A stretch of DNA of 64,000 bases. It comes from Escherichia coli. Its GTDB lineage: Bacteria > Pseudomonadota > Gammaproteobacteria > Enterobacterales > Enterobacteriaceae. The stretch lies in the NCBI RefSeq assembly GCF_013122565.1, contig NZ_CP053258.1; one strand, written 5' to 3'. Made by a program: the position numbers and the translations under genes. The notes under the pieces were generated by a model, which was not told where the DNA came from, did no database searches, and saw only the letters and a program-made list of their open reading frames with translations. Each line of letters opens with the position of its first letter. Position 1 is the stretch's first letter. Shown piece after piece: positions 22,521 to 64,000 of the stretch.

Positions 22521-22526
22521 GAGTCT

Positions 22527-22555
22527 TCGGCGGGAAATTATTCCCGCCTTTCTTA
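22527..22555 (+). terminator. hok 3' stem-loop (fbi/terminator-like)
   Basis: Hairpin ggcgggaaattattcccgcc followed by tttctt, just after the hokA stop. Confidence 0.5.
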
Positions 22556-22679
22556 CGGTGTTGGGTATTCTCAATGCACCCTAATTTATTTCTTTAATGA
22601 ATGTTTTTTTTAAAAAATACGCATGGATTTGGCTATTAGATAAGTTTTTAATCGGGAACAGGAATGGTTCGGAGCCTTC

Positions 22680-33408: not shown

Positions 33409-33491
33409 TCGATCCTGACGGGGCGATCATCTCTCAATGGCAACAGATTATCTGTTGCCATTATTCACACCAATGACTCAGGGACCGAATC

Positions 33492-34178: not shown

Positions 34179-34201
34179 TCCTTTTACAAGGCGCTTTTAC
34201 T

Positions 34202-36733: not shown

Positions 36734-36743
36734 GGATATTCAG

Positions 36744-37796: not shown

Positions 37797-37801
37797 CGGT
37801 C

Positions 37802-38326
37802 ATGAAACAAATCGTGATTATGTTGTGCTTACTATCTTGTGCCTTTTCGCCACTGGCGGCAATTACGGATTTAGGGCCGAAAGGAACATTGAAATTCACC
37901 CTTAAAATCAGTCAGGGGGCCTGCGAACTGGTAAAAGACAGTGTTGAAGTTGACATGGGCACCGCAGTTCTCAAGAAGCCGGTAAGAATCGGAACGGAAC
38001 TGAACCCTACCGCTTTTTCAATTGGATTAAAAAACTGTAGTGAAGTGGTCAGAGTCTACGTCACTATGGATGGTACGCCAAATGCGGATGACCCCAATTT
38101 GTTTGCGTTAGATGCGGGTGGCGCTACAGGCGTTGGGCTGAAAATCAAAACCGCCGCGGGCGTACAACAGCTCCCCGAAAATACAACGCCGACACCGATT
38201 GAGTTCGCGATTAATGGTGATGGCGCGCATCAACTAAACTATATCGCCAGCTACGTGCCACTTCGCGCCGATGCAACCATTGGTCGCGCGGATGCAACGG
38301 TCGATTTTACTGTACAGTACGAATAA
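37802..38326 (+). CDS. lpfE: fimbrial minor subunit
   Basis: Start at MKQIVIMLCLL (track ORF begins at GTG 37793); fimbrial subunit fold. Confidence 0.75.
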   Translation: MKQIVIMLCLLSCAFSPLAAITDLGPKGTLKFTLKISQGACELVKDSVEVDMGTAVLKKPVRIGTELNPTAFSIGLKNCSEVVRVYVTMDGTPNADDPNLFALDAGGATGVGLKIKTAAGVQQLPENTTPTPIEFAINGDGAHQLNYIASYVPLRADATIGRADATVDFTVQYE

Positions 38327-43966: not shown

Positions 43967-43975
43967 GGGGACATC

Positions 43976-44878
43976 ATGTCACAGGTTACTGAAAATAAAG
44001 TGATTAGCGCACCGGTGCCGATGACCCCGTTACAGGAGTTCTGGCACTATTTTAAACGCAACAAAGGCGCGGTCGTCGGGCTGGTTTACGTCGTCATCGT
44101 GCTGTTTATCGCGATCTTTGCCAACTGGATTGCACCCTATAACCCGGCGGAACAGTTCCGCGATGCACTGCTCGCCCCGCCAGCCTGGCAGGAAGGCGGC
44201 AGCATGGCGCACTTGCTGGGCACCGATGACGTCGGTCGTGATGTGCTGTCGCGCCTGATGTACGGTGCGCGATTGTCACTGCTGGTTGGCTGTCTGGTGG
44301 TGGTGTTATCGCTGATTATGGGCGTTATTCTCGGCCTGATCGCCGGTTACTTCGGCGGCCTGGTCGATAACATCATCATGCGCGTGGTCGATATCATGCT
44401 GGCGCTGCCAAGTCTGCTGTTGGCACTGGTGCTGGTGGCGATTTTCGGCCCGTCGATTGGTAACGCCGCGCTGGCGCTGACCTTCGTTGCCTTGCCGCAC
44501 TATGTGCGCTTAACACGCGCCGCCGTGCTGGTGGAGGTGAATCGCGATTACGTTACCGCGTCTCGCGTGGCAGGTGCCGGGGCGATGCGTCAGATGTTTA
44601 TTAACATCTTCCCGAACTGCCTTGCGCCTCTGATTGTTCAGGCGTCGCTCGGTTTCTCTAACGCCATTCTCGATATGGCTGCTCTTGGTTTCCTCGGCAT
44701 GGGGGCACAGCCGCCAACGCCTGAGTGGGGCACCATGCTCTCCGACGTGTTGCAGTTCGCGCAAAGCGCCTGGTGGGTCGTGACCTTCCCTGGTCTGGCG
44801 ATCCTGCTGACGGTGCTGGCATTTAACCTGATGGGTGACGGTCTGCGTGACGCGCTCGATCCCAAACTGAAGCAGTAA
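43976..44878 (+). CDS. dppC: dipeptide ABC transporter permease
   Basis: 300-aa permease matching DppC. Confidence 0.9.
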
Positions 44879-44888
44879 GAGGTTCGAG

Positions 44889-45872
44889 ATGGCGTTATTA
44901 AATGTAGATAAATTATCGGTGCATTTCGGCGACGAAAGCGCACCGTTCCGCGCCGTAGACCGCATCAGCTACAGCGTAAAACAGGGCGAAGTGGTCGGAA
45001 TTGTGGGTGAGTCTGGCTCCGGTAAGTCGGTCAGTTCACTGGCTATTATGGGGCTGATTGATTATCCGGGCCGCGTAATGGCGGAAAAGCTGGAGTTTAA
45101 CGGTCAGGATTTACAGCGTATCTCAGAAAAAGAGCGCCGCAACCTGGTGGGTGCCGAAGTGGCGATGATCTTCCAGGACCCGATGACCAGCCTTAACCCG
45201 TGCTACACAGTGGGTTTCCAGATTATGGAAGCGATTAAGGTGCATCAGGGCGGTAATAAGAGCACTCGTCGTCAGCGGGCGATTGACCTGCTGAATCAGG
45301 TCGGTATTCCCGATCCGGCATCGCGTCTGGATGTTTACCCGCATCAGCTTTCCGGCGGCATGAGCCAGCGCGTGATGATCGCCATGGCGATTGCCTGTCG
45401 GCCAAAACTGCTGATTGCCGATGAACCAACCACTGCGCTGGACGTGACCATTCAGGCGCAAATCATTGAACTACTGCTGGAGCTACAGCAGAAAGAGAAC
45501 ATGGCGCTGGTGTTAATTACCCATGACCTGGCGCTGGTGGCGGAAGCGGCGCATAAAATTATCGTGATGTATGCCGGCCAGGTGGTGGAAACGGGCGATG
45601 CGCACGCCATCTTCCATGCGCCGCGTCACCCGTATACCCAGGCATTGCTGCGTGCGCTGCCGGAATTTGCTCAGGATAAAGAACGTCTGGCGTCGTTGCC
45701 AGGTGTTGTTCCCGGCAAGTATGACCGTCCGAACGGCTGCCTGCTTAACCCGCGCTGCCCCTATGCCACTGACAGATGCCGCGCTGAAGAACCGGCGTTG
45801 AATATGCTCGCTGACGGGCGTCAGTCCAAATGCCATTACCCACTTGATGATGCCGGGAGGCCGACACTATGA
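44889..45872 (+). CDS. dppD: dipeptide ABC transporter ATP-binding protein
   Basis: 327-aa ORF; Walker A GESGSGKS, signature LSGGMSQR. Confidence 0.9.
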
Positions 45873-46873
45873 GTACGCATGAGGCCACCTCGCAACAACC
45901 GCTGTTGCAGGCTATCGACCTGAAAAAACATTATCCGGTGAAGAAAGGTTTGTTCGCACCGGAACGTCTGGTGAAGGCGCTGGATGGCGTTTCGTTTAAC
46001 CTTGAACGTGGCAAAACGCTGGCGGTAGTAGGTGAATCTGGCTGCGGTAAATCGACCCTCGGTCGGTTGCTGACGATGATTGAAACGCCCACCGGCGGCG
46101 AGCTGTATTACCAGGGGCAGGATCTGCTCAAGCACGATCCGCAGGCGCAGAAGTTGCGTCGGCAGAAAATCCAGATTGTCTTCCAGAACCCTTACGGTTC
46201 GCTGAATCCACGTAAAAAAGTCGGGCAAATTCTTGAGGAGCCGCTGCTGATTAATACCAGCTTAAGCAAAGAACAGCGTAGGGAAAAAGCCCTGTCGATG
46301 ATGGCGAAAGTCGGCCTGAAAACCGAGCACTATGACCGCTATCCGCATATGTTCTCCGGCGGTCAGCGTCAGCGTATCGCCATCGCCCGTGGTCTGATGC
46401 TCGACCCGGATGTGGTGATTGCCGATGAGCCGGTTTCCGCGCTGGACGTCTCAGTGCGTGCGCAGGTGCTCAACCTGATGATGGATTTGCAGCAGGAACT
46501 GGGGCTTTCTTATGTCTTTATCTCGCACGACCTGTCGGTTGTGGAGCACATTGCTGATGAAGTGATGGTGATGTACCTGGGCCGCTGCGTGGAGAAAGGG
46601 ACGAAGGACCAAATCTTCAATAACCCGCGCCACCCGTACACTCAGGCGCTGCTCTCCGCCACACCACGCCTGAACCCGGACGATCGTCGCGAACGCATCA
46701 AACTCACCGGTGAACTGCCAAGCCCGCTCAATCCACCGCCGGGTTGCGCCTTCAACGCCCGCTGTCGTCGGCGCTTCGGCCCCTGCACTCAGTTACAGCC
46801 ACCGCTGAAAGATTACGGCGGTCAACTGGTGGCCTGCTTTGCCGTTGATCAGGATGAAAATCCGCAGCGTTAA
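45869..46873 (+). CDS. dppF: dipeptide ABC transporter ATP-binding protein
   Basis: 334-aa ORF; Walker A GESGCGKS; overlaps dppD stop by 4 nt. Confidence 0.9.
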
Positions 46874-46902
46874 CTCACAAAACCGGGGCCATGCGCTCCG
46901 GT

Positions 46903-48174
46903 TTACTCAATCAGCTTCAACAGTGGCGACAAGCATAGCAAAATGCCGTACAGCAGAATTAGCCAGGCTTTAAACCCGCGAAGTTTTTCCAGTTGTGCGA
47001 CTTTATAGATCAGGAAAAACGGAATGAGGCACGACACAATGCCATATAACGGGCTTCCCAACTGAAAGAACACCAGCACCGATACACGAAACGAAACCCA
47101 AATCGTCAACGTAATGACGATAAAAGCGCAGATCGCCAGAGTCAGTACGCGTGAGTTAATTTTCTTGGTATCAATAATTCGGCTTAACAGATTGAGAATA
47201 ATGCCTTTAATGGCCTCGTGGAAACCGAGATAAATGCCAAAGAATGCGGTGAGTACGGCAAAGATATTCAGCACCGTAGAGGTGATATGAATGATATGCC
47301 CAGGGATCACCTGCGCGGCCAGCGCCAGTGCCGAGATATTTTGTTCAAAGGCAGAAACGGCTTCTTCGTGGCTAATTGAGAAGGTAAACGAAAAAGCAAA
47401 AAACAGGATCACCGCGATGAGCGTGACATAACTAATTCGGTGGGTACGCAGCGCGAGCCGGGTTGCCAGTACTTTATCCGCTTCCCGTTTACGATAGGCA
47501 ATATTCATTGGGTTAAGTACCTGAATAAATACTGCAGAAAAGAAGCAAAATGGAATGGTAAGCAGGACATCGCGGAAAAAGACGGAGGCTTGTGGGAAGG
47601 CGGTTATATTGGCGAAATTCCAGTGCGGGATCATCGCAAAACCGAACACGACAATAATCCCTACTTTGACCACCACCATTGGCCCAGAAATCTTAAACAG
47701 TAATCGTTCACCACCAGACGCAATCGCCACCAGTACGGCGAAAATGGCGACTTTATAAAGTAGAGATTGTGAAAGATCGGCATCGGTTAAACCGAAGGTT
47801 TTCAGGTACGAGGCGCTGTCGAAAACCACGGAGAGAGAGTAGATAAAAATCCCGTGGATAATCATCAAAAAGTAGATAACTCCGAGGAAAATTCCCCAGT
47901 TCTTCCCCAGGTAATGACTGATAATATCGGTGTAGTCATTACAGGAATCGCTTTCAGAAAGGGTTTTTAAATAAATGTCCTGTACTACCCAGGTGGCAGG
48001 ATAAGCAATGATCGCTGCGGTAATAAATACCCAAATTCCCTTCAAGCCAATTTGTACTGGCATCAGCACGGTTCCGGCACCAATCGCCATGCCTATGCAT
48101 AATAAAACCCAGCCGAAGTCGTAGCGTGTAAACGGCAATTTCTGATCGTGTTTCGGTAGTGTGTTGTGCTGCAT
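46903..48174 (-). CDS. yhjV: amino acid transporter family membrane protein YhjV
   Basis: Start at [20 protein letters not shown] (codon 22 of track ORF 46903-48237); 423 aa. Confidence 0.85.
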
Positions 48175-48534
48175 AAAGTCCTGTCCAGAAAGAAGTCGGC
48201 CTCGCAAAAATGAATAAACCCAGTTTCTCTTGCGCAACAGGTGGAGAAGTCGAATACGCAGTATGTAAAAAATGAGGCAACAGATTCACTGGGGAGGTCG
48301 CGAGGAGGCGCAATTCTACAAAATTGCGCATTTCACTACCAGTCTGGAGTCAGCCCGGATATGAACTGCAACTATTGCAAATAAAGAAATTAAGCTGGAA
48401 GGCATCACGCAATGAGGAAGATTGTCGGGTGCTGAGGGTAAAAAGCAATCGTAAAATCAGCGGCAAGCCGGAAGGGTTCCGGTGAGGCGCAATGTTGCGG
48501 GGGCTTTATCCCTGGTGGCATTGGTTGCTGGAGA

Positions 48535-48601
48535 GAGAAAACCCCCGCACGTTGCAGGTATGCACCTGACAACACCACGGGGGCTAATCTTGACTCTAGA
48601 C
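48535..48601 (-). ncRNA. rdlD: Rdl antisense RNA, copy 1
   Basis: Minus strand reads gtctagagtcaagattagcccccgtggtgttgtcaggtgcatacctgcaacgtgcgggggttttctc, matching Rdl as recalled (terminal hairpin plus U tail). Confidence 0.55.
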
Positions 48602-48649
48602 CACTCAAGAATAGCCGCGAAACGTTGTCATTACAACACAGGCGGCTAT

Positions 48650-48757
48650 ATGACGCTCGCAGAGCTGGGCATGGCCTTCTGGCATGATTTAGCGGCTCCG
48701 GTCATTGCTGGCATTCTTGCCAGTATGATCGTGAACTGGCTGAATAAGCGGAAGTAA
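48650..48757 (+). CDS. ldrD: LdrD type I toxin peptide, copy 1
   Basis: 35-aa MTLAELGMAFWHDLAAPVIAGILASMIVNWLNKRK. Confidence 0.85.
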   Translation: MTLAELGMAFWHDLAAPVIAGILASMIVNWLNKRK

Positions 48758-48807
48758 CGTGTCATGCGGGCGTCAGGCTGCCGTAATGGCAATTTGCGCC
48801 CGGACCA

Positions 48808-48838
48808 GGCCGCAGGGGTGAAACTCTGCGGCCTTTTT
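48808..48838 (+). terminator. ldr terminator, copy 1
   Basis: Hairpin ggccgcaggggtgaaactctgcggcc followed by tttttc. Confidence 0.65.
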
Positions 48839-49017
48839 CGTAAGAAAAATGCAACGGTTGCAAGCGGATAATATTCTGCGGAATGCGCAGCACAGAGTGA
48901 AGACGTGACGGATTTCGGAACAGAAAAACAGTCGTAGAATCAGCGGCAAGCCGGAAAGGTTCCGGTGAGGCGCAATGTTGCGGGGGCTTTATCCCTGGTG
49001 GCATTGGTTGCTGGAGA

Positions 49018-49084
49018 GAGAAAACCCCCGCACGTTGCAGGTATGCACCTGACAACATTACGGGGGCTAATCTTGAACCCAAAC
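49018..49084 (-). ncRNA. rdlD: Rdl antisense RNA, copy 2
   Basis: Same position within unit 2; 3' hairpin conserved, 5' portion differs from copy 1. Confidence 0.5.
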
Positions 49085-49132
49085 AACTCAAGAATAGCCG
49101 CGAAACGTTGTCATTACAACACAGGCGGCTAT

Positions 49133-49240
49133 ATGACGCTCGCAGAACTGGGCATGGCCTTCTGGCATGATTTAGCGGCTCCGGTCATTGCTGGCATTCT
49201 TGCCAGTATGATCGTGAACTGGCTGAACAAGCGGAAGTAA
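49133..49240 (+). CDS. ldrD: LdrD type I toxin peptide, copy 2
   Basis: Identical 35-aa peptide; synonymous differences only. Confidence 0.85.
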   Translation: MTLAELGMAFWHDLAAPVIAGILASMIVNWLNKRK

Positions 49241-49290
49241 CGTGTCATGCGGGCGTCAGGCTGCCGTAATGGCAATTTGCGCCCGGACCA

Positions 49291-49321
49291 GGCCGCAGGG
49301 GTGAAACTCTGCGGCCTTTTT
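49291..49321 (+). terminator. ldr terminator, copy 2
   Basis: Same hairpin as copy 1. Confidence 0.65.
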
Positions 49322-49500
49322 CGTAAGAAAAATGCAACGATTGCAAGCGGATAATATTCTGCGGAATGCGCAGCACAGAGTGAAGACGTGACGGATTCCG
49401 GAGCAGAAAAACAGTCGTAGAATCAGCGGCAAGCCGGAAAGGTTCCGGTGAGGCGCAATGTTGCGGGGGCTTAATCCCTGGTGGCATTGGTTGCTGGAGA

Positions 49501-49567
49501 GAGAAAACCCCCGCACGTTGCAGGTATGCACCTGACAACATCACGGGGGCCATTCTTGAACCTGAAC
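49501..49567 (-). ncRNA. rdlD: Rdl antisense RNA, copy 3
   Basis: Same position within unit 3; 5' portion differs from copies 1 and 2. Confidence 0.5.
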
Positions 49568-49615
49568 AACTCAAGAATAGCCGCGAAACGTTGTCATTAC
49601 AACACAGGCGGCTAT

Positions 49616-49723
49616 ATGACGCTCGCAGAACTGGGCATGGCCTTCTGGCACGATTTAGCGGCTCCGGTCATTGCTGGCATTCTTGCCAGTATGATTGTGA
49701 ACTGGCTGAATAAGCGGAAGTAA
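49616..49723 (+). CDS. ldrD: LdrD type I toxin peptide, copy 3
   Basis: Identical 35-aa peptide; synonymous differences only. Confidence 0.85.
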   Translation: MTLAELGMAFWHDLAAPVIAGILASMIVNWLNKRK

Positions 49724-49773
49724 CGTGTCATGCGGGCGTCAGGCTGCCGTAATGGCAATTTGCGCCCGGATCA

Positions 49774-49804
49774 GGCCGCAGGGGGTAAACTCTGCGGCCT
49801 TTTT
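49774..49804. terminator. ldr terminator, copy 3 (also convergent bcsG terminator)
   Basis: Hairpin ggccgcagggggtaaactctgcggcc followed by tttttcg; 5 nt from the bcsG stop. Confidence 0.65.
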
Positions 49805-49809
49805 CGTTC

Positions 49810-51489
49810 TTACTGCGGGTAAGGCACCCAGTCGCCGCCGTTCAGGCGAACGTACGGTTTATCCTGGTATTGAATAACTACTGCATTTGAGTTCTCGGAG
49901 ACCGGTGCTGTTTGTGGCAACCCACTGGTGAGTTTTTTCCAGTCAACATTGTCTTCGGTGAAAATCTTGCCATCAAGAACGCGAACCACCAGATCGGAGA
50001 TAGCCAGGAAGCTGCTCGGTTGGTCGATAACAATCGGTGCCCCCTGATGTGGTGCCTTCATGCCGAAGAATTTCACCCCAACGGGGACGTCGGTGATAGA
50101 CGGGCTAGGGATATCACGTAGGCCAGATACCTGCATTCTGTCGCCCTTCAGCGCGCCGCCGTGTTCCGGCACCACGACCACCATCACTTTACGACCCGAT
50201 TTCTCCAGTTCAGTAAAGAAGGCGTCCAGTTCATCAAAGAATTTCTGCGCCCGCGCTTTGTAATCCGCTGTTTTGCTGACGCCCGGATAATGGTTGCCGT
50301 CATGCAGTGGAAGTGTGTTGTAGAACGTGGCACTACGGCTGTTTTTATCTTTTTCGGTAACGTCCAGCCAGCGGTTAAGCACGGCGGTATCGTCATAAAC
50401 CGGCGAACCATCAAAGCCCAGCAAAATAATCGGCAGATTTGTTTGATCCATCAATTCAGTCTGCATGCCGCCATTTTCGCGAACTTCTTTCAAAAAACCG
50501 CCGAACTGGCCGTTATGTCCCATCATCAGGTGCTGGGTAAAGCCCAGTTTCGACAGGTTATCAAATAGATAGCAGTCGTTATTTGCCGGTTGATACAGAT
50601 TAGTGTGCGAAGTCTGCCCGCAGCTGGCGCGCAGTAAACGGATCGCCGCCGGGCCACTGTAGGAGGTGGCGGAGTTAAAGTTCTTGAACTCAATATCGAA
50701 ATGCGACCACAGCGGATGCGACATCAACCCGGCGGCTTCTATATCCGACCAGGAAAGCGAACAGATATTAATCACCAGTAGTTCAAATGGCTGAGCATCA
50801 GCGGGCAGCGAAGACGGGAAGGTCGATTTACGTTTCGCCTCCGCGTTATAGAAATTATTCAGCCAGGCGTTAAGGTTCGCCGTTGTTGGCGGTGCAGTTT
50901 GTGCGGGCATATCACCCACTACCGGTGCGCCACCCGTCGCCGCAACGGTTGCCGCTGCGTTACCACCCGTCGTTGTTACAGTGGTCGTCGGTTGTCCGGC
51001 TGGCCACAAGGAGAAACTTGGTCCCGCCAGGGTAAGTACGTTCAGCCATAGCAGTATGGCAACCACAAAAACGGTAATGCGAATCCATTGTGACAGGAAT
51101 AACCAGGCCACTAATAAAACAAAAATGGCCCCAATCATCTGCCAGTTAATAAAGCGTGTGACAAGGTCGATTAAATAATCGGTACTGAACCCCGCCACCT
51201 GCGAACCCTGGCTCATTATGCTTTCCGGGCCAGGCAACCAGGTGTCATGCCAGAACAAAGCAAAGCCGATCGGCAGGGCAATCCAGTGGCGCAAGCGATG
51301 CAGGCTGTAACGCGGAATGGGCATCAGCAGAAACGCGGCAAACACCAAATTGAGGAGCGGATGGAAGTTAAGATATCCCGCCCACAACAGGCCGAACTTA
51401 ACCAGAAAATAGAAGTTCCAGCCGGAAAGGCCGCGCCAGTATTGCCAGAGGGAAGAAGGCATGGCGGTATTATGCGTAAATTGAGTCAT
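49810..51489 (-). CDS. bcsG: cellulose biosynthesis protein BcsG
   Basis: 559-aa membrane protein matching BcsG (YhjU). Confidence 0.9.
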
Positions 51490-51677
51490 TTTTTGGTTGC
51501 CCTGGCTTTTTCCGTGCGGCGTAACGTCCCGGCCGGTTTAACATAACGAGGTTTAGCAAAGAACAAACGTAAGGTGTCGCGAATGCGTCGCAAAGAGTGC
51601 CGCGCCAGATAGCCCAGCGGGAAAAATATCAGTGCGCAAACGACAATAATTTCAATGATATCGCTGATGGTCATCAT
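51486..51677 (-). CDS. bcsF: cellulose biosynthesis protein BcsF
   Basis: 63-aa single-TM protein; overlaps bcsG and bcsE by 4 nt each. Confidence 0.8.
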
Positions 51678-53245
51678 GATGAGCGCTCCACAGCATCATC
51701 TAACAGTCGCATGGGTTCTGGTATTCGTCGCCAGTGGCGACCATCGTGCTCGGCATTGATGACCGGTTTAGAACTTTGCGTTAAAGGCAGCGGCATGCCC
51801 CATTGTTCTGGGGCAAGCAGGCGCATCTGCACCAGCTCGGCACTGATTTGATCATCTTCAAACCAGACCATACGGTTTGAGAAAATGTCGCCAGTAGGCA
51901 ATGGGAAAATATGATTCAACGCGGTATCCAGATCGTTAATCCGACAGAATGAGAGAAACAGCACCAGCCGATTACCGCCAATGGTCATGATATCGCCGGT
52001 ACGGTTAGGGCGACATAGCGTCAGGGCTTGCTCAACGCGGATACCCGGTACCGGACGTAGGGCAACCAGAACGCCTTTACCGTGGGCTGGCAGGAGAGGG
52101 TTATTCATCATGTTGTTGACGGCATTACAGAACACATCCCACTTCTGGAAACCACGCAGTTTGAGCGGCTGGGTCATTGACAGCAAGGTAGTGATATCTT
52201 CCGGCACATAGCGACTAAACTTCTGCCCTTGCACGCTTTCGATCATCGTCAGACAGCGGGAGAGTGGCGCATTCCACGGGATAACCATATTTGCACCGCA
52301 GGCTAATAACAAACGTTCATCGGTGGCGCGCAGGCTAGCGGTATTTTCCCGTACGAGGATTTTCATCGCACTACCGCGCTGGCGACGCAGAGTATGAATG
52401 CTGCGGGCCAGTGGCTCGATTTGTGCATTTTGCTGTAAAGAAAAGACTACCGTCGCCGCCTGAGCGGTACGGGCTTCATTGAACAGGACTTCGTTATTGT
52501 TGAACAGTTGCCAGTGTTCCGATAGCGGCGGCGCACCTTCCAGTACAGCAACATTACTCAGAATGCGTTTTTCGTCGCTGCGTGGTTGGATCTCCGCCTC
52601 TTCGCTTTGAACTAATGTCCAGATACCATTTTGTTGCTGAACGCTAAGCTGCTGACGGGCGCTGACCCCTTTTTCGTTGCACCAGAAGGCAATATCCAGC
52701 AAATGTTGGTCGCCCTGAAAACGCAAACTGGCAAGACCAAAAAGTGAACGGTATTCCTCAAGCAACAATGAAAATTGTTTATCGTTATTATTTCCGGGAT
52801 TAATTACCAAAAGCGAACAATGGTTTAACCTGCTCCATTTATTCAATTTATCCAACCATGAGCGAAGCCGCTCGGCAGGAATGTTTTGCCATGCGTTATT
52901 TGCGCAAACAAGAATAAAAAGGTAATTATGGGGATCAATAGAACACTGCAAATCACGGGCCAAATAGTATAGACCTTTTTCATGATTTAGCATCGAAAAT
53001 AATTTAATTTTTTCCGGCCCTTGAGAATCATCTAATTGAAAGATTTTCTCCGGATCGCTGTCCATGCTAATGACCGCGACGTGTGCGGTTTCAGCCTGGG
53101 ATGCAATTGTTTGATTCGCCAGACTGATAGCATCTTCATGGCGATCGACGTTAAACCACCAGACGCCGCCTGCTGGCATATGTCGCAGCTCATCCCATAA
53201 TGATGAGATACCGATAGAGAATACAGGGTCCACAATGTCCCTCAT
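51674..53245 (-). CDS. bcsE: cellulose biosynthesis protein BcsE (c-di-GMP binding)
   Basis: 523-aa ORF matching BcsE (YhjS). Confidence 0.9.
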
Positions 53246-53517
53246 GTCACCATTTTGTCTGATTATCAGTTTACTAGCGAAAGCTAAGAAATAAACCTAC
53301 CATTGAAATTAAAACTTATCAGATTTAGCATGTGAATCAATTTAGCAGGTCATAAGACGTGTGATTTTAGTCTTTTCGTTTTTAACTTTTTCTGTTGCGT
53401 AACGGAAAGTCAAAAAGTGAGCAAATTCCCGTCTCGCCGTAAACAATAAACCGGCGAAATGCTCACGGTTAGAATTGTCTTATGAATGGTGCAGTTATTT
53501 CATAGGGATCAAGCAAA
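53246..53517. promoter_or_regulatory. divergent bcsEFG / bcsRQABZC promoter region
   Basis: 272-bp AT-rich spacer between divergent operons; sites not mapped. Confidence 0.45.
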
Positions 53518-53706
53518 ATGAATAACAATGAACCAGATAATCTGCCTGATCCCGCGATAGGCTATATCTTCCAGAATGATATTTTGGCGTTAAAGCAGGC
53601 ATTTTCACTGCCTGATATTGATTATGCCGATATTTCCCAACGCGAACAGTTGGCCGCGGCATTAAAACGCTGGCCGTTGCTGGCAGAGTTTGCGCAACAA
53701 AAGTAG
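53518..53706 (+). CDS. bcsR: cellulose biosynthesis protein BcsR
   Basis: 62-aa ORF matching BcsR (YhjR). Confidence 0.8.
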   Translation: MNNNEPDNLPDPAIGYIFQNDILALKQAFSLPDIDYADISQREQLAAALKRWPLLAEFAQQK

Positions 53707-53717
53707 GGGATTGGTGA

Positions 53718-54470
53718 ATGGCCGTACTGGGATTGCAGGGGGTGCGGGGAGGCGTGGGGACAACAACCATCACCGCCGCATTAGCCTGGTCATTACAAAT
53801 GTTGGGAGAAAATGTCCTGGTGGTCGATGCCTGCCCGGACAATTTGTTGCGCCTGTCATTTAATGTTGATTTTATCCACCGTCAGGGCTGGGCCAGAGCT
53901 ATGCTGGATGGTCAGGACTGGCGTGACGCTGGGTTGCGCTACACCTCGCAGCTCGATTTGCTGCCTTTTGGTCAGTTATCCATTGAAGAACAAGAAAATC
54001 CACATCACTGGCAAACCCGGTTGAGCGATATTTGCTCCGGCTTACAGCAACTAAAATCCAGCGGGCGTTACCAGTGGATTTTAATCGACTTACCGCGTGA
54101 TGCCTCGCAGATAACCCACCAGCTGCTGAGTTTGTGCGATCACTCGCTGGCAATCGTCAATGTGGATGCCAACTGCCATATCCGACTGCATCAGCAAGCA
54201 CTGCCGGATGGCGCACATATTTTGATTAATGACTTCTGTATTGGCAGTCAGGTTCAGGACGATATTTACCAGCTTTGGTTGCAAAGCCAGCGCCGATTAC
54301 TGCCGATGCTCATTCATCGTGATGAAGCGATGGCTGAATGCCTGGCGGCTAAGCAACCAGTCGGTGAATACCGCAGTGATTCGCTGGCGGCTGAAGAGAT
54401 ACTGACGCTGGCGAACTGGTGCCTGTTGAACTATTCCGGGCTGAAAACGCCAGTCGGGAGTAAATCATGA
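53718..54470 (+). CDS. bcsQ: cellulose biosynthesis protein BcsQ (MinD/ParA-like ATPase), intact
   Basis: 250-aa ORF with deviant Walker A GVRGGVGTT; codon 6 is TTG (53733-53735). Confidence 0.9.
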   Translation: MAVLGLQGVRGGVGTTTITAALAWSLQMLGENVLVVDACPDNLLRLSFNVDFIHRQGWARAMLDGQDWRDAGLRYTSQLDLLPFGQLSIEEQENPHHWQTRLSDICSGLQQLKSSGRYQWILIDLPRDASQITHQLLSLCDHSLAIVNVDANCHIRLHQQALPDGAHILINDFCIGSQVQDDIYQLWLQSQRRLLPMLIHRDEAMAECLAAKQPVGEYRSDSLAAEEILTLANWCLLNYSGLKTPVGSKS

Positions 54471-57085
54471 GTATCCTGACCCGGTGGTTGCTTATCCCGC
54501 CGGTCAACGCGCGGCTTATCGGGCGTTATCGCGATTATCGTCGTCACGGTGCGTCGGCTTTCAGCGCGACGCTCGGCTGTTTCTGGATGATCCTGGCCTG
54601 GATTTTTATTCCGCTGGAGCACCCGCGCTGGCAGCGTATTCGCGCAGAACATAAAAACCTGTATCCGCATATCAACGCCTCGCGTCCGCGTCCGCTGGAC
54701 CCGGTCCGTTATCTCATTCAAACATGCTGGTTACTGATCGGTGCATCGCGCAAAGAAACGCCGAAACCGCGCAGGCGGGCATTTTCAGGTCTGCAGAATA
54801 TTCGTGGACGTTACCATCAATGGATGAACGAGCTGCCTGAGCGCGTTAGCCATAAAACACAGCATCTTGATGAGAAAAAAGAGCTCGGCCATTTGAGTGC
54901 CGGGGCGCGGCGGTTGATCCTCGGTATCATCGTCACCTTCTCGCTGATTCTGGCGTTAATCTGCGTTACTCAGCCGTTTAACCCGCTGGCGCAGTTTATC
55001 TTCCTGATGCTGCTGTGGGGGGTAGCGCTGATCGTACGGCGGATGCCGGGGCGCTTCTCGGCGCTAATGTTGATTGTGCTGTCGCTGACCGTTTCTTGCC
55101 GTTATATCTGGTGGCGCTACACCTCTACGCTGAACTGGGATGATCCGGTTAGCCTGGTGTGCGGGCTTATTCTGCTCTTCGCCGAAACGTACGCGTGGAT
55201 TGTGCTGGTGCTCGGCTACTTCCAGGTAGTATGGCCGCTGAATCGTCAGCCGGTGCCATTGCCGAAAGATATGTCGCTGTGGCCGTCGGTGGATATCTTT
55301 GTCCCGACTTACAACGAAGATCTCAACGTGGTGAAAAATACCATTTACGCCTCGCTGGGTATCGACTGGCCGAAAGACAAGCTGAACATCTGGATCCTTG
55401 ATGACGGCGGCAGGGAAGAGTTTCGCCAGTTTGCGCAAAACGTGGGGGTGAAATATATCGCCCGTACTACTCATGAACATGCGAAAGCGGGCAACATCAA
55501 CAATGCGCTGAAATATGCCAAAGGCGAGTTCGTGTCGATTTTCGACTGCGACCACGTACCAACGCGATCGTTCCTGCAAATGACCATGGGCTGGTTCCTG
55601 AAAGAAAAACAACTGGCGATGATGCAGACGCCGCACCACTTCTTCTCGCCGGACCCGTTTGAACGCAACCTGGGGCGTTTTCGTAAAACACCGAACGAAG
55701 GCACGCTGTTCTATGGTTTGGTGCAGGATGGCAACGATATGTGGGACGCCACTTTCTTCTGCGGTTCCTGTGCGGTGATTCGCCGTAAGCCGCTGGATGA
55801 AATTGGCGGCATTGCTGTCGAAACCGTGACTGAAGATGCGCATACTTCTTTGCGTTTGCACCGTCGTGGCTATACCTCCGCGTATATGCGTATTCCGCAG
55901 GCGGCGGGGCTGGCGACCGAAAGTCTGTCGGCGCATATCGGTCAGCGTATTCGCTGGGCGCGCGGGATGGTACAAATCTTCCGTCTCGATAACCCGCTTA
56001 CCGGTAAAGGGCTGAAGTTTGCTCAGCGGCTATGTTACGTCAACGCCATGTTCCACTTCTTGTCGGGCATTCCACGGCTGATCTTCCTGACTGCGCCGCT
56101 GGCGTTCCTGCTGCTTCATGCCTACATCATCTACGCGCCTGCATTGATGATCGCCCTGTTTGTGCTGCCGCATATGATTCATGCCAGCCTGACTAACTCG
56201 AAGATCCAGGGCAAATATCGCCACTCGTTCTGGAGTGAAATCTACGAAACGGTTCTGGCGTGGTATATCGCACCACCGACGCTGGTGGCGCTGATTAACC
56301 CGCACAAAGGCAAATTTAACGTCACCGCCAAAGGTGGACTGGTGGAAGAAGAGTACGTCGACTGGGTGATCTCGCGGCCCTACATCTTCCTTGTTCTGCT
56401 CAACCTGGTGGGCGTTGCGGTAGGCATCTGGCGCTACTTCTATGGCCCGCCAACCGAGATGCTCACCGTGGTCGTCAGTATGGTGTGGGTATTCTACAAC
56501 CTGATTGTTCTTGGCGGCGCAGTTGCGGTATCGGTAGAAAGCAAACAGGTACGCCGATCGCACCGCGTGGAGATGACGATGCCCGCGGCAATTGCCCGCG
56601 AAGATGGTCACCTCTTCTCGTGTACCGTTCAGGATTTCTCCGACGGTGGTTTGGGGATCAAGATCAACGGTCAGGCGCAGATTCTGGAAGGGCAGAAAGT
56701 GAATCTGTTGCTTAAACGTGGTCAGCAGGAATACGTCTTCCCGACCCAGGTGGCGCGCGTGATGGGTAATGAAGTTGGGCTGAAATTAATGCCGCTCACC
56801 ACCCAGCAACATATCGATTTTGTGCAGTGTACGTTTGCCCGTGCGGATACATGGGCGCTCTGGCAGGACAGCTATCCGGAAGATAAGCCGCTGGAAAGTC
56901 TGCTGGATATTCTGAAGCTCGGCTTCCGTGGCTACCGCCATCTGGCGGAGTTTGCGCCTTCTTCGGTGAAGGGCATATTCCGTGTGCTGACTTCTCTGGT
57001 TTCCTGGGTTGTATCGTTTATTCCGCGCCGCCCGGAGCGGAGCGAAACGGCACAACCATCGGATCAGGCTTTGGCTCAACAATGA
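54467..57085 (+). CDS. bcsA: cellulose synthase catalytic subunit (c-di-GMP activated)
   Basis: 872-aa GT-2 protein with QxxRW (QRIRWARG) and C-terminal PilZ region; overlaps bcsQ stop by 4 nt. Confidence 0.95.
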   Translation: MSILTRWLLIPPVNARLIGRYRDYRRHGASAFSATLGCFWMILAWIFIPLEHPRWQRIRAEHKNLYPHINASRPRPLDPVRYLIQTCWLLIGASRKETPKPRRRAFSGLQNIRGRYHQWMNELPERVSHKTQHLDEKKELGHLSAGARRLILGIIVTFSLILALICVTQPFNPLAQFIFLMLLWGVALIVRRMPGRFSALMLIVLSLTVSCRYIWWRYTSTLNWDDPVSLVCGLILLFAETYAWIVLVLGYFQVVWPLNRQPVPLPKDMSLWPSVDIFVPTYNEDLNVVKNTIYASLGIDWPKDKLNIWILDDGGREEFRQFAQNVGVKYIARTTHEHAKAGNINNALKYAKGEFVSIFDCDHVPTRSFLQMTMGWFLKEKQLAMMQTPHHFFSPDPFERNLGRFRKTPNEGTLFYGLVQDGNDMWDATFFCGSCAVIRRKPLDEIGGIAVETVTEDAHTSLRLHRRGYTSAYMRIPQAAGLATESLSAHIGQRIRWARGMVQIFRLDNPLTGKGLKFAQRLCYVNAMFHFLSGIPRLIFLTAPLAFLLLHAYIIYAPALMIALFVLPHMIHASLTNSKIQGKYRHSFWSEIYETVLAWYIAPPTLVALINPHKGKFNVTAKGGLVEEEYVDWVISRPYIFLVLLNLVGVAVGIWRYFYGPPTEMLTVVVSMVWVFYNLIVLGGAVAVSVESKQVRRSHRVEMTMPAAIAREDGHLFSCTVQDFSDGGLGIKINGQAQILEGQKVNLLLKRGQQEYVFPTQVARVMGNEVGLKLMPLTTQQHIDFVQCTFARADTWALWQDSYPEDKPLESLLDILKLGFRGYRHLAEFAPSSVKGIFRVLTSLVSWVVSFIPRRPERSETAQPSDQALAQQ

Positions 57086-57095
57086 TGATAACGCG

Positions 57096-59435
57096 ATGAA
57101 AAGAAAACTATTCTGGATTTGTGCAGTGGCTATGGGGATGAGTGCGTTCCCCTCTTTCATGACGCAGGCGACGCCAGCAACGCAACCACTGATCAATGCT
57201 GAGCCAGCTGTAGCCGCCCAGACGGAACAGAATCCGCAGGTTGGGCAAGTGATGCCGGGCGTGCAGGGCGCTGATGCGCCAGTCGTGGCGCAGAACGGTC
57301 CTTCGCGTGATGTGAAGCTGACCTTTGCGCAAATTGCGCCGCCGCCGGGAAGCATGGTGCTACGTGGCATTAACCCGAACGGCAGCATTGAGTTTGGTAT
57401 GCGCAGCGATGAAGTGGTGACGAAGGCGATGCTCAACCTCGAATACACGCCATCGCCATCGTTACTGCCTGTCCAGTCGCAGTTAAAGGTTTATCTCAAT
57501 GATGAACTGATGGGCGTGTTGCCAGTGACCAAAGAACAGTTGGGTAAAAAAACGCTGGCGCAAATGCCCATTAACCCACTGTTTATTACCGACTTCAACC
57601 GTGTGCGGCTGGAGTTTGTCGGCCATTATCAGGACGTGTGCGAAAACCCGGCCAGCACCACGCTTTGGCTGGATGTTGGGCGGAGCAGTGGACTGGATTT
57701 GACCTATCAGACCCTGAATGTGAAGAATGACCTGTCACACTTCCCGGTACCATTCTTTGATCCGCGTGATAACCGTACTAACACCTTGCCGATGGTCTTT
57801 GCGGGTGCGCCGGATGTCGGGCTGCAACAAGCATCTGCCATTGTCGCCTCGTGGTTTGGTTCGCGTTCTGGCTGGCGTGGGCAGAACTTCCCGGTGCTCT
57901 ATAACCAGCTGCCGGATCGCAATGCCATTGTTTTTGCCACTAATGACAAACGCCCGGACTTCCTGCGCGATCATCCGGCGGTAAAAGCCCCGGTGATTGA
58001 GATGATCAACCATCCGCAGAATCCTTATGTCAAACTGCTGGTGGTGTTTGGTCGTGACGACAAAGACCTGTTGCAGGCAGCGAAAGGTATCGCTCAGGGT
58101 AACATTCTGTTCCGTGGTGAAAGCGTGGTAGTGAATGAAGTGAAACCGCTGCTACCGCGTAAGCCGTACGATGCGCCGAACTGGGTGCGTACCGATCGTC
58201 CGGTCACCTTTGGTGAACTGAAAACCTATGAAGAACAGTTACAATCCAGCGGTCTTGAGCCGGCAGCGATTAACGTTTCGCTAAACCTGCCACCGGATCT
58301 CTACCTGATGCGCAGTACCGGCATTGATATGGATATCAACTATCGCTACACCATGCCGCCGGTGAAAGACAGTTCGCGGATGGATATCAGCCTGAATAAC
58401 CAGTTCCTGCAATCTTTCAACCTGAGCAGCAAACAGGAGGCGAACCGCCTGCTGCTGCGGATTCCGGTATTACAAGGTTTGCTGGATGGCAAAACGGATG
58501 TCTCTATTCCGGCGCTGAAACTGGGCGCGACCAACCAGCTGCGCTTCGACTTTGAGTATATGAACCCGATGCCGGGCGGTTCGGTGGATAACTGTATTAC
58601 CTTCCAGCCGGTGCAGAATCATGTGGTGATTGGTGACGATTCCACCATCGACTTCTCGAAGTATTACCACTTCATCCCGATGCCGGATCTACGCGCCTTT
58701 GCTAACGCGGGCTTCCCGTTCAGCCGGATGGCGGATCTGTCGCAAACCATCACCGTGATGCCGAAAACGCCTAACGAAGCACAGATGGAAACGTTGCTGA
58801 ATACTGTTGGTTTTATCGGCGCACAGACGGGCTTCCCGGCGATTAATCTGACGGTGACCGATGATGGCAGCACCATTCAGGGCAAAGATGCCGACATCAT
58901 GATCATCGGTGGTATTCCGGACAAATTAAAAGACGATAAGCAAATCGACCTGTTGGTGCAGGCGACCGAAAGCTGGGTGAAAACACCGATGCGCCAGACC
59001 CCGTTCCCCGGCATTGTGCCGGACGAGAGCGATCGCGCGGCAGAAACCCAGTCAACGCTGACCTCTTCCGGTGCGATGGCGGCGGTGATTGGCTTCCAGT
59101 CGCCGTATAACGACCAGCGCAGCGTGATTGCGCTGCTGGCAGATAGCCCACGCGGTTATGAAATGCTTAACGATGCGGTGAACGATAGCGGCAAACGCGC
59201 CACCATGTTCGGTTCGGTCGCGGTGATCCGCGAGTCCGGTATCAACAGCCTACGTGTTGGCGACGTTTATTACGTAGGTCATCTGCCGTGGTTCGAGCGC
59301 TTGTGGTATGCGCTGGCAAACCATCCGATTCTGCTGGCGGTGCTGGCGGCTATCAGTGTGATATTGCTGGCATGGGTACTGTGGCGTCTGCTGCGTATTA
59401 TTAGTCGTCGTCGTCTTAACCCGGATAACGAGTAA
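57096..59435 (+). CDS. bcsB: cellulose synthase periplasmic subunit BcsB
   Basis: Start at MKRKLFWICAVAMGMSAF signal peptide (codon 30 of track ORF); 779 aa. Confidence 0.9.
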   Translation: MKRKLFWICAVAMGMSAFPSFMTQATPATQPLINAEPAVAAQTEQNPQVGQVMPGVQGADAPVVAQNGPSRDVKLTFAQIAPPPGSMVLRGINPNGSIEFGMRSDEVVTKAMLNLEYTPSPSLLPVQSQLKVYLNDELMGVLPVTKEQLGKKTLAQMPINPLFITDFNRVRLEFVGHYQDVCENPASTTLWLDVGRSSGLDLTYQTLNVKNDLSHFPVPFFDPRDNRTNTLPMVFAGAPDVGLQQASAIVASWFGSRSGWRGQNFPVLYNQLPDRNAIVFATNDKRPDFLRDHPAVKAPVIEMINHPQNPYVKLLVVFGRDDKDLLQAAKGIAQGNILFRGESVVVNEVKPLLPRKPYDAPNWVRTDRPVTFGELKTYEEQLQSSGLEPAAINVSLNLPPDLYLMRSTGIDMDINYRYTMPPVKDSSRMDISLNNQFLQSFNLSSKQEANRLLLRIPVLQGLLDGKTDVSIPALKLGATNQLRFDFEYMNPMPGGSVDNCITFQPVQNHVVIGDDSTIDFSKYYHFIPMPDLRAFANAGFPFSRMADLSQTITVMPKTPNEAQMETLLNTVGFIGAQTGFPAINLTVTDDGSTIQGKDADIMIIGGIPDKLKDDKQIDLLVQATESWVKTPMRQTPFPGIVPDESDRAAETQSTLTSSGAMAAVIGFQSPYNDQRSVIALLADSPRGYEMLNDAVNDSGKRATMFGSVAVIRESGINSLRVGDVYYVGHLPWFERLWYALANHPILLAVLAAISVILLAWVLWRLLRIISRRRLNPDNE

Positions 59436-60548
59436 TTGAAGATGAATGTGTTGCGTAGTGGACTCGTGACGATGCTGCTGCTGGCTGCCTTTAGTGTTCA
59501 GGCAGCCTGTACCTGGCCTGCCTGGGAGCAGTTTAAAAAGGATTACATCAGTCAGGAAGGGCGCGTCATCGACCCCAGCGACGCGCGCAAAATCACCACC
59601 TCCGAAGGGCAAAGTTACGGTATGTTCTTTGCCCTGGCGGCTAACGACCGTGCAGCTTTCGATAATATTCTCGACTGGACGCAGAACAATCTCGCTCAGG
59701 GTTCTTTAAAAGAACGTTTGCCCGCCTGGCTGTGGGGCAAGAAAGAGAACAGTAAGTGGGAAGTGCTGGACAGCAATTCGGCCTCCGATGGTGATGTCTG
59801 GATGGCCTGGTCGTTGCTGGAGGCGGGGCGTTTGTGGAAAGAGCAGCGTTATACCGACATCGGCAGCGCGTTGCTAAAACGTATTGCGCGGGAGGAAGTG
59901 GTGACGGTGCCTGGGCTGGGTTCCATGTTGTTACCGGGCAAAGTGGGTTTTGCTGAGGATAACAGCTGGCGTTTTAACCCCAGCTACCTGCCGCCGACGC
60001 TGGCGCAGTATTTCACCCGCTTTGGCGCGCCGTGGACTACGCTGCGCGAAACCAATCAACGTTTATTGCTGGAAACCGCCCCGAAAGGCTTTTCGCCAGA
60101 CTGGGTGCGCTATGAGAAAGACAAAGGCTGGCAGCTAAAAGCCGAAAAAACATTGATCAGCAGCTACGACGCTATCCGCGTTTACATGTGGGTAGGCATG
60201 ATGCCTGACAGCGATCCGCAGAAAGCGCGGATGCTCAACCGGTTTAAACCGATGGCGACATTCACTGAGAAAAACGGTTATCCGCCGGAAAAAGTGGATG
60301 TGGCTACGGGGAAAGCGCAGGGTAAAGGACCGGTCGGTTTTTCTGCCGCCATGCTGCCCTTTTTACAAAACCGCGATGCGCAGGCCGTTCAGCGCCAGCG
60401 CGTGGCCGATAACTTTCCCGGCAGCGATGCCTATTACAACTATGTGCTGACCCTGTTTGGACAAGGCTGGGATCAACACCGTTTCCGCTTCTCGACAAAA
60501 GGTGAGTTATTACCTGACTGGGGCCAGGAATGCGCAAATTCACACTAA
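59436..60548 (+). CDS. bcsZ: endo-1,4-beta-glucanase (GH8)
   Basis: 370-aa ORF with signal peptide; matches BcsZ; true start may be the ATG at 59442. Confidence 0.9.
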
Positions 60549-63500
60549 ACATATTCACGCTTTCCCTCGGTCTGGCCGTCATGCCGATGGTCGAGGCAGC
60601 ACCAACCGCTCAGCAACAGTTGCTGGAGCAAGTTCGGTTAGGCGAAGCGACCCATCGTGAAGATCTGGTGCAACAGTCGTTATATCGGCTGGAACTTATT
60701 GATCCGAATAACCCGGACGTCGTTGCCGCCCGTTTCCGTTCTTTGTTACGTCAGGGCGATATTGATGGCGCGCAAAAACAGCTCGATCGGCTGTCGCAGT
60801 TAGCGCCGAGTTCAAATGCGTATAAATCGTCGCGGACTACGATGCTGCTTTCCACGCCAGATGGTCGTCAGGCACTGCAACAGGCAAGATTGCAGGCGAC
60901 GACTGGTCATGCAGAAGAAGCTGTGGCGAGTTACAACAAACTGTTCAACGGTGCGCCGCCGGAAGGTGACATTGCCGTCGAGTACTGGAGTACGGTGGCG
61001 AAAATTCCGGCTCGCCGTGGCGAAGCGATTAATCAGCTAAAACGCATTAATGCGGATACGCCGGGCAATACGGGCTTGCAAAACAATCTGGCGCTATTGC
61101 TGTTTAGTAGCGATCGCCGTGACGAAGGTTTTGCCGTCCTGGAACAGATGGCGAAATCGAACGCCGGGCGCGAAGGGGCCTCTAAAATCTGGTACGGGCA
61201 GATTAAAGACATGCCCGTCAGTGATGCCAGTGTGTCGGCGCTGAAAAAATATCTTTCGATCTTTAGTGATGGCGATAGCGTGGCGGCTGCGCAATCGCAA
61301 CTGGCAGAACAGCAAAAACAGCTGGCCGATCCTGCTTTCCGCGCTCGTGCGCAAGGTTTAGCGGCGGTGGACTCTGGTATGGCGGGTAAAGCCATTCCCG
61401 AACTACAACAGGCGGTGCGGGCGAACCCGAAAGACAGTGAGGCTCTGGGGGCGCTGGGCCAGGCGTATTCTCAGAAAGGCGATCGCGCCAATGCAGTGGC
61501 GAATCTGGAAAAAGCCCTCGCACTGGATCCGCACAGCAGCAACAACGACAAATGGAACAGTCTGCTGAAAGTAAACCGCTACTGGCTGGCGATCCAGCAG
61601 GGCGATGCTGCGCTGAAAGCCAATAATCCTGACCGGGCAGAACGCCTGTTCCAGCAGGCGCGTAATGTCGATAACACCGACAGTTATGCAGTGCTGGGGC
61701 TGGGCGATGTGGCGATGGCGCGAAAAGATTATCCCGCCGCCGAACGTTATTATCAGCAGACCTTGCGTATGGACAGCGGCAACACTAACGCCGTGCGCGG
61801 GCTGGCAAATATTTACCGCCAGCAATCGCCAGAAAAAGCTGCAGCGTTTATCGCCTCGCTCTCTGCCAGTCAGCGGCGTAGCATTGATGATATCGAACGC
61901 AGCCTGCAAAACGACCGTCTGGCACAGCAGGCAGAGGCACTGGAAAACCAGGGCAAATGGGCGCAGGCGGCAGCACTTCAGCGGCAACGACTGGCGCTGG
62001 ACCCCGGCAGTGTATGGATTACTTACCGACTTTCGCAGGATCTCTGGCAGGCCGGACAACGCAGCCAGGCTGATACGTTAATGCGCAATCTGGCGCAGCA
62101 GAAGCCGAACGACCCGGAGCAGGTTTACGCTTACGGGCTGTACCTCTCTGGTCATGACCAGGACAGAGCGGCGCTGGCGCATATCAACAGCCTGCCGCGT
62201 GCGCAGTGGAGCAGCAATATTCAGGAGCTGGTTAATCGACTGCAAAGCGATCAGGTGCTGGAAACCGCTAATCGCCTGCGAGAAAGCGGCAAAGCAGCTG
62301 AAGCGGAAGCGATGCTGCGTCAGCAACCACCTTCCACGCGTATTGACCTCACGCTGGCTGACTGGGCGCAGCAGCGACGTGATTACACCGCCGCCCGCGC
62401 TGCATATCAGAATGTCCTGACGCGGGAGCCAACTAACGCCGATGCCATTCTGGGGCTGACGGAAGTGGATATTGCTGCCGGTGACACAGCGGCGGCACGT
62501 AGCCAGCTGGCGAAACTGCCCGCTACCGATAACGCCTCGCTGAACACACAGCGGCGCGTGGCGCTGGCGCAGGCGCAGCTTGGCGATACCGCAGCGGCGC
62601 AGCAGACGTTTAATAAGTTGATCCCGCAGGCAAAATCTCAGCCACCGTCGATGGAAAGCGCGATGGTGCTGCGCGACGGTGCGAAGTTTGAAGCGCAGGC
62701 GGGCGATCCAAAGCAGGCGCTGGAAACCTACAAAGACGCCATGGTCGCATCCGGTGTGACTACGACGCGTCCGCAGGATAACGACACCTTTACCCGACTG
62801 ACCCGTAACGACGAGAAAGATGACTGGCTGAAACGCGGCGTGCGCAGCGATGCGGCGGACCTCTATCGCCAGCAGGATCTTAACGTCACCCTTGAGCATG
62901 ATTACTGGGGTTCGAGCGGCACCGGTGGTTACTCCGATCTGAAAGCCCACACTACCATGTTGCAGGTGGATGCGCCGTATTCTGACGGGCGGATGTTCTT
63001 TCGCAGTGATTTCGTCAATATGAATGTCGGCAGTTTCTCCACTAATGCCGATGGCAAATGGAATGACAACTGGGGCACCTGTACATTACAGGATTGTAGC
63101 GGCAACCGCAGCCAGTCGGATTCCGGTGCCAGCGTGGCGGTTGGCTGGCGCAACGACACCTGGAGCTGGGATATCGGCACCACGCCGATGGGCTTCAACG
63201 TGGTGGATGTGGTCGGCGGCATCAGTTACAGCGATGATATCGGGCCGCTGGGTTACACCGTTAACGCCCACCGTCGGCCCATCTCCAGTTCTTTGCTGGC
63301 CTTTGGCGGGCAAAAAGACTCCCCGAGCAATACCGGGAAAAAATGGGGCGGCGTGCGTGCCGACGGCGTGGGGCTAAGCCTGAGCTACGATAAAGGTGAA
63401 GCAAACGGCGTCTGGGCATCGCTTAGTGGCGACCAGTTAACCGGTAAAAATGTCGAAGATAACTGGCGTGTGCGCTGGATGACGGGCTATTACTATAAGG

Positions 63501-64000
63501 TCATCAACCAGAACAATCGCCGCGTCACAATCGGCCTGAACAACATGATCTGGCATTACGACAAAGACCTGAGTGGCTACTCACTAGGTCAGGGCGGTTA
63601 CTACAGCCCGCAGGAATACCTGTCGTTTGCCATACCGGTGATGTGGCGGGAGCGCACGGAAAACTGGTCGTGGGAGCTTGGGGCGTCTGGCTCGTGGTCG
63701 CATTCACGCACCAAAACCATGCCGCGTTATCCGCTGATGAATCTGATCCCGACCGACTGGCAGGAAGAAGCTGCGCGGCAATCCAACGATGGCGGCAGCA
63801 GTCAGGGCTTCGGCTACACGGCGCGGGCATTACTTGAACGACGTGTTACTTCCAACTGGTTTGTCGGCACGGCAATTGATATCCAGCAGGCGAAAGATTA
63901 CGCACCCAGCCATTTCCTGCTCTACGTACGTTATTCCGCCGCCGGATGGCAGGGTGACATGGATTTACCGCCGCAGCCGCTGATACCTTACGCCGACTGG
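60530..64000 (+). CDS. bcsC: cellulose synthase outer-membrane/TPR subunit BcsC, stop codon beyond window end
   Basis: Frame open from ATG 60530 ([23 protein letters not shown]) to the last base; final codons LIPYADW match the BcsC C-terminus; overlaps bcsZ by 19 nt. Confidence 0.9.

Follow-up and report, generated by a model that had tools for sequence, protein, structure and literature searches.

A bcsQ allele with a sense codon 6 in a complete cellulose secretion locus of Escherichia coli

Described BcsQ proteins and the K-12 allele

BcsQ is a MinD/ParA-like ATPase of the SIMIBI class with a deviant Walker A motif, and it is essential for cellulose secretion. Its ATP-sandwich dimer is capped by BcsR to give an R2Q2 complex; the nucleotide is contacted by T16 and T17 in cis, by N152 and R156 in trans and, at the adenine, by N171, and a structural salt bridge is formed by R10 and D150 (PMC7840130). 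In the same crystal structure paper, R174 is assigned to a cluster of conserved residues, and the engineered substitutions R156E and C39D are described as stimulating cellulose secretion (PMC7840130). The BcsRQ complex supports BcsA at its PilZ domain, and a hairpin of BcsR is inserted into the glycosyltransferase domain (PMC11470070).

The TTG/TAG polymorphism at codon 6 of bcsQ, its phenotype and its repair are already known, and have become textbook material for work on E. coli biofilms. According to PMC5944007 and PMC7397504, both of which cite Serra et al. 2013, the K-12 change 17T>A abolishes cellulose and the repair of TAG to TTG restores production (strain AR3110), so that the effect ascribed to the K-12 stop by an earlier, sequence-only reading of this DNA is indeed the reported one. 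Whether the stop acts through the loss of BcsQ or through polarity on neighbouring genes is left open in PMC5944007. The bcsQ gene of MG1655 (b3534, NC_000913.3) is annotated as a pseudogene, with a translation MAVLG*QGVRGG that places TAG at codon 6. On a wider scale, loss-of-function mutations in bcs genes have been described in 74 of 76 common sequence types, and E. coli has repeatedly evolved towards lost or attenuated cellulose production (PMC10881479).

The gene studied here lies in a 64-kb stretch of E. coli DNA, which is referred to as the window and was analysed over its whole length. With respect to the crystallised BcsQ (YhjQ) of strain 1094 (PDB 6YBU, 6YAR, 6YB3, 6YB5 and others), which is also 250 aa long, the alignment runs from end to end (residues 1-250 of 6YBU, E = 1.7e-165), and the Walker A motif, the ATP-contact and salt-bridge residues and the flanking bcsR and bcsA genes are all as in the window. 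Six residues differ, namely T53I, Q96H, A114S, N172D, R174C and A222S, residue 172 being D in both the window and K-12 and N in the crystallised sequence. The K-12 pseudogene (b3534, MG1655/W3110) resembles the window in locus, gene order and length (753 nt), with 97.9% nucleotide identity, but differs from it at codon 6, where the TAG of K-12 is replaced by the very sense codon engineered into AR3110, and at six further amino-acid positions. The K-12-type null allele (17T>A, TAG) is therefore absent from the window. The comparison of this codon with MG1655, which the sequence-only reading had proposed, gave TAG in that genome, and in the 71-mer 53699-53769 the codon-6 base is the sole mismatch to K-12.

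The frequency of both versions was determined by exact matching of this 71-mer against 5426 complete E. coli genomes. The TTG version was present in 3544 of them and the TAG version in 348; nearly all TAG carriers among the 40 matches listed were recognisable K-12 laboratory derivatives (MG1655, C600, DH5alpha, J53, NEB 5-alpha and others). The remaining genomes mostly carry another SNP inside the 71-mer, as is the case of ST131, and in about 120 of the 5426 nothing matched the bcsR-bcsQ region. Most E. coli thus have an intact codon 6, which does not distinguish this strain. As a side observation, the RefSeq genome NZ_CP034595.1 has the TAG allele, yet its annotation shows bcsQ as an ordinary coding sequence of 729 nt (about 242 aa; 1544-2272 in the retrieved locus, L010), without a pseudogene label and with its start placed 24 nt 3' of the usual one; hence, screens based on annotation can miss the codon-6 stop.

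Gene integrity and surroundings of the bcs locus

Direct reading of the sequence placed the ATG of bcsQ at 53718-53720 and its TGA at 54468-54470, and the translation starts MAVLGLQGVRGGVGTTT. The TTG at codon 6 and the frame open for 250 aa, on which the sequence-only reading had rested, were both borne out in this way. The product scored 535.9 bits against the NCBIfam equivalog NF007460 (cut-off 399; model positions 1-249 of 250) and 294.9 bits against TIGR03371 (cut-off 157.85), while Pfam PF06564 (CBP_BcsQ) is on record for the identical protein of L002, a draft assembly described below. The profile score, together with the match to the crystallised sequence, excludes a chance open reading frame. 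The deviant Walker A reads GVRGGVGTTT, and R10, T16, T17, C39, D41, D150, N152, R156, N171, R201 and E203 are all retained; T16, T17, N152, R156, N171, the R10-D150 pair and C39/D41 are invariant columns in an alignment of 14 BcsQ sequences. The gene context is also that of the family, with bcsR directly 5' and bcsA directly 3'. Profile, motif residues and context thus agree in assigning the predicted protein to the BcsQ family.

The integrity of the whole locus was assessed in the same manner. All nine bcs genes (bcsRQABZC and bcsEFG) gave gapless, full-length alignments to K-12 with zero internal stops, and all nine products scored above their respective NCBIfam cut-offs (Table 1), in agreement with the earlier statement that every bcs frame in the window is open, that of bcsC as far as the window edge. 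In fact, the 1157 sense codons of bcsC all lie inside the window and just its stop codon falls past the edge; in L002, the nearest relative found, the bcsC frame, which shows 2 synonymous differences, ends at the expected stop. In relatives, pdeK/hmsP is the next gene after bcsC, just past the window edge. The BcsA protein is the same as that of K-12 despite 37 synonymous differences, and BcsR carries the changes T8N and V23L. The operon junctions are canonical, either tight or overlapping, and the ATGA shared by bcsQ and bcsA would allow translational coupling of both genes. A disrupting mutation elsewhere in the bcs genes had been named beforehand as a finding that would speak against functional machinery; it was looked for, and the nine bcs genes and the bcsE-bcsR intergenic region all proved free of nonsense mutations, frameshifts and IS insertions, the intergenic region having no indels relative to K-12 either. 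Compared with the E. coli-like (type II) Bcs system, the window has all nine genes in the canonical divergent arrangement, with no structural difference and with differences at the allele level only. As judged from these reading frames, the strain holds every structural gene for phosphoethanolamine-cellulose. In this context, O157:H7 TR01, whose bcsQ is among the nearest to that of the window, has a bcsG annotated as frameshifted (6910-8590 in the retrieved locus, L005), a natural bcs disruption.

Table 1. Features of the bcs locus and of the adjacent ldr repeats in the window
Feature	Position	Strand	Product or content	Basis or comparison
ldr ORFs	48650-48757, 49133-49240, 49616-49723
rdlD RNAs	48536-48601, 49019-49084, 49502-49567	-
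bcsG	49810-51489	-	559 aa, phosphoethanolamine transferase modifying cellulose	TIGR03368, 817 bits
bcsF	51486-51677	-	63 aa	100% nucleotide identity to K-12; TIGR03493 match
bcsE	51674-53245	-	523 aa, c-di-GMP-binding regulator	NF011619, 1188 bits
bcsE-bcsR divergent intergenic (promoter) region	53246-53517		272 bp	K-12 length, 6 substitutions
bcsR (yhjR)	53518-53706	+	62 aa, partner/chaperone of BcsQ	NF040717, 75.8 bits (cut-off 46)
bcsQ	53718-54470	+	250 codons + TGA	ORF, translation, NF007460 profile, PDB 6YBU match
bcsQ codon 6	53733-53735	+	TTG (Leu6)	site of the K-12 TAG nonsense mutation
bcsQ codon 174	54237-54239	+	TGT (Cys)	CGT (Arg) in 6/6 comparison E. coli genomes
ATGA overlap	54467-54470	+	bcsQ stop/bcsA start	read from sequence
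bcsA	54467-57085	+	872 aa, cellulose synthase catalytic subunit	NF008558, 1794 bits
bcsB	57096-59435	+	779 aa	K-12 alignment, NCBIfam profile
bcsZ	59442-60548	+	368 aa, periplasmic endoglucanase	K-12 alignment, NCBIfam profile
bcsC	60530-64000	+	outer-membrane channel	NF008520, matched 1-1157/1157

As regards the lineage, the whole window reached 98.3-98.6% identity with the nearest of the 5426 complete E. coli genomes, which places it in an E. coli lineage with few sampled genomes. The draft assembly L002 (GCA_052983875.1) shares 99.5% identity with the window over 43720-64000 and hardly differs from it in the bcs genes. Unlike the bcs genes (49810-64000), dppC, dppD, dppF and yhjV (43720-49800) differ from L002 at 8-22 codons per gene, and this change from divergent to near-identical sequence suggests that a recombination breakpoint lies close to the ldr repeats. 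The dppF gene of the window is 94.2% identical to that of K-12, its neighbours being 97-99% identical. The repeats themselves (48441-49807; period 483 bp, 2.8 copies, 96% identity) consist of three tandem Ldr toxin/RdlD antitoxin units, where K-12 has the single LDR-D; three copies are also found in ST131 and Z1322HEC0005.

Two other regions of the window differ from K-12. Between yhjX and eptB (32881-38326) there is an apparently intact lpfABCDE operon for long polar fimbriae, encoding a major subunit of 175 aa, a chaperone of 228 aa, an usher of 843 aa, LpfD of 360 aa and LpfE of 177 aa, all five products being above the NCBIfam Lpf cut-offs; in K-12 the corresponding site is empty. In addition, the hokA/sokA locus (20662-22590) contains, as in K-12, an IS150 (20848-22292) with 99.1% identity to the K-12 copy. 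With respect to its flanks, this element has the opposite orientation to that of K-12, and it stands about 42 nt from the hokA remnant, which suggests an independent insertion or an inversion. The Rfam sok match (20771-20924, 86 bits) spans the IS150 boundary.

From open frames to cellulose output

The preferred reading, to which a probability of about 0.9 is assigned, is that of an ordinary wild-type bcsQ allele in a complete cellulose secretion locus of the E. coli type, with bcsRQABZC divergent from bcsEFG. Gene integrity, allele frequencies and family membership come from the present analysis, and the protein mechanism and the K-12 phenotype from published work. Ribosomes would read bcsQ through Leu6 and all 250 codons and end at the TGA which overlaps the bcsA start, so that full-length BcsQ could be made and the translation of bcsA kept coupled. 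The ATP-bound sandwich dimer would then combine with BcsR into R2Q2 and dock on the PilZ and glycosyltransferase domains of BcsA, as required for secretion. In K-12, translation halts after five residues at the codon-6 TAG, with the consequent loss of BcsQ, and bcsA expression is probably lowered too, since the coupling through ATGA makes polarity of this stop plausible.

Intact frames had also been taken by the sequence-only reading as a sign of likely functional machinery and of a cellulose-proficient strain. This is partly supported. The complete and intact structural gene set stands; the proficiency claim goes too far, since it needs regulators which lie off the window and since strains BL21 and H10407, which have no premature bcs stops, nevertheless give no calcofluor signal on LB-calcofluor (PMC5944007). 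In addition, the BcsQ allele is itself unusual. Open bcs frames are necessary, not sufficient, for cellulose. DgcC is specifically required for cellulose biosynthesis, the synthase needing its c-di-GMP (PMC7397504), and matrix synthesis requires CsgD and RpoS (PMC5014196); csgD, dgcC and rpoS are all located outside the 64-kb window. The actual cellulose output would therefore depend on c-di-GMP/CsgD regulation encoded elsewhere, as well as on the activity of the BcsQ variant.

It is possible, although on balance unlikely, that the locus and its proteins are competent and the strain is nonetheless cellulose-negative in standard conditions, due to regulation encoded off the window (csgD, dgcC, rpoS or a high phosphodiesterase activity being the candidates) or to changes 5' of bcsR. 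The regulatory requirements and the calcofluor-negative strains just mentioned are in favour of this explanation, as are four lineage-unique substitutions in the bcsE-bcsR intergenic region (53353, 53481, 53487 and 53491), which are common to L002 and absent from all six genomes used for comparison (K-12, O157:H7 TR01, UMNK88, an ST131, Z1322HEC0005 and an O80:H26), three of them lying close together 27-37 nt 5' of the bcsR start codon. The promoter scan of this region speaks neither for it nor against it, since it gave one consensus match (53303-53331), which is at chance level and is missed by the substitutions.

Amino-acid replacements in the BcsQ allele

The ordinary allele at codon 6 is found in a protein that is rare. 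In a collection of about 15 billion proteins, the exact BcsQ sequence (WP_171460186.1 / QJU26463.1) was present in 2 contigs and the exact BcsE and BcsG sequences in 3 contigs each, whereas those of BcsA, BcsB, BcsZ and BcsF were each present in at least 1000 contigs. In view of the modest identity of the window to complete E. coli genomes, Shigella or a cryptic Escherichia clade was considered as its source; this was rejected, since the rare BcsE, BcsG, BcsC, BcsR and BcsQ proteins of the window match exactly the E. coli records QJU26459-QJU26467. When compared with ten other BcsQ sequences of the E. coli cluster, the window alone shows T53I, Q96H, A114S, R174C and A222S. The replacement R174C also appears in two further independent assemblies, L002 and L003, and is thus not a sequencing error.

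Attention was focused on this last position. R174 is invariant in 13 other BcsQ sequences (Escherichia including E. albertii, Salmonella, Citrobacter and relatives) and is also present in the ten other members of the E. coli cluster, while in the window the R174/R201/E203 cluster at the dimer/vestibule face keeps R201 and E203 and has Cys at 174. A tentative and rather unlikely interpretation is that the rare allele (T53I, Q96H, R174C and A222S, with or without A114S) is a naturally occurring form of the BcsRQ ATP switch with altered function. With R174 gone from a cluster which is thought to lock the nucleotide, the retention or turnover of ATP would be altered, and the amount or timing of cellulose would shift in this lineage, be it attenuated or stimulated.

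An improbable version of events is that BcsQ has been weakened or inactivated, R174C together with T53I and Q96H weakening the ATP-locked dimer or its fit to BcsA/BcsE, with less secretion as a result. The invariance of R174 in close genera and within the E. coli cluster speaks for it, as does the recurrent loss or attenuation of cellulose described for the species. The wider family, however, speaks against it. Among 98 representatives, position 174 is D in 42, N in 16, S in 9, Q in 7, T in 4 and R in 4; Cys is found in 2 of the 39 closest homologs; and homologs at 52-62% identity which keep N152, R156, N171, R201 and E203 have T or Q at this position. In these alignments the R174/R201/E203 cluster is a feature of an enterobacterial subgroup and not of the whole family. 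Moreover, A222S matches the family consensus, and no report of R174 mutagenesis was found in the BcsQ literature searched, which also counts against a weakened protein. It should be borne in mind that N152 and R156 vary too in distant homologs, although they are experimentally important in E. coli, so that deep conservation neither condemns nor clears R174C; family-wide conservation was consequently dropped as an argument on this replacement.

The pattern of change along the lineage was examined by counting the codon changes unique to the window with respect to the six comparison genomes. In bcsQ, 5 non-synonymous and 4 synonymous changes were counted, compared with 9 and 62 in all other bcs genes together; bcsA (0:16) and bcsB (0:19) had no amino-acid change at all. 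The excess of replacements in bcsQ over the other bcs genes (Fisher p = 0.007) is based on small counts and becomes borderline after correction for nine genes. Similarly, the 5:4 ratio of the lineage departs from the 3:21 (non-synonymous:synonymous) that is polymorphic in bcsQ across the six comparison genomes (p = 0.02). Since bcsQ shows no increase in synonymous divergence, the import of the gene from a distant donor does not explain the excess. Between the window and L002, the bcs region shows 2 synonymous differences, too alike for dN/dS. The figures for bcsA and bcsB reflect purifying selection, from which it is argued that the secretion system has been in use.

These counts bear on a weakened BcsQ in two opposite ways, since the replacement excess in bcsQ would be in accordance with it, but the zero amino-acid change of bcsA and bcsB on the same branch is unexpected if an essential partner had long been dead. 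Adaptive tuning, with secretion raised or retimed and no decay, is very doubtful: the 5:4 versus 3:21 comparison, the bcsQ frame kept open in the window, L002 and L003, three assemblies independent of one another, and the ability of single substitutions such as R156E and C39D to stimulate secretion (PMC7840130) would agree with it, but the counts are small, the enrichment is borderline after the nine-gene correction and relaxed constraint fits the same numbers. On the whole, the ordinary wild-type allele in a complete locus continues to be preferred, and the BcsQ allele is probably tolerated.

As for the significance of these results, which goes little further than annotation, bcs loss-of-function is common in many sequence types (PMC10881479), which makes a complete bcs locus worth recording and a fully open one mildly informative, yet about genotype and not phenotype; open reading frames are not to be equated with cellulose proficiency. 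The R174C allele offers an inexpensive natural means to probe a conserved residue of BcsQ. If it should turn out to be a functional variant, the replacement excess confined to bcsQ would mark a lineage-specific selection on the regulator of cellulose secretion, with the synthase being conserved.
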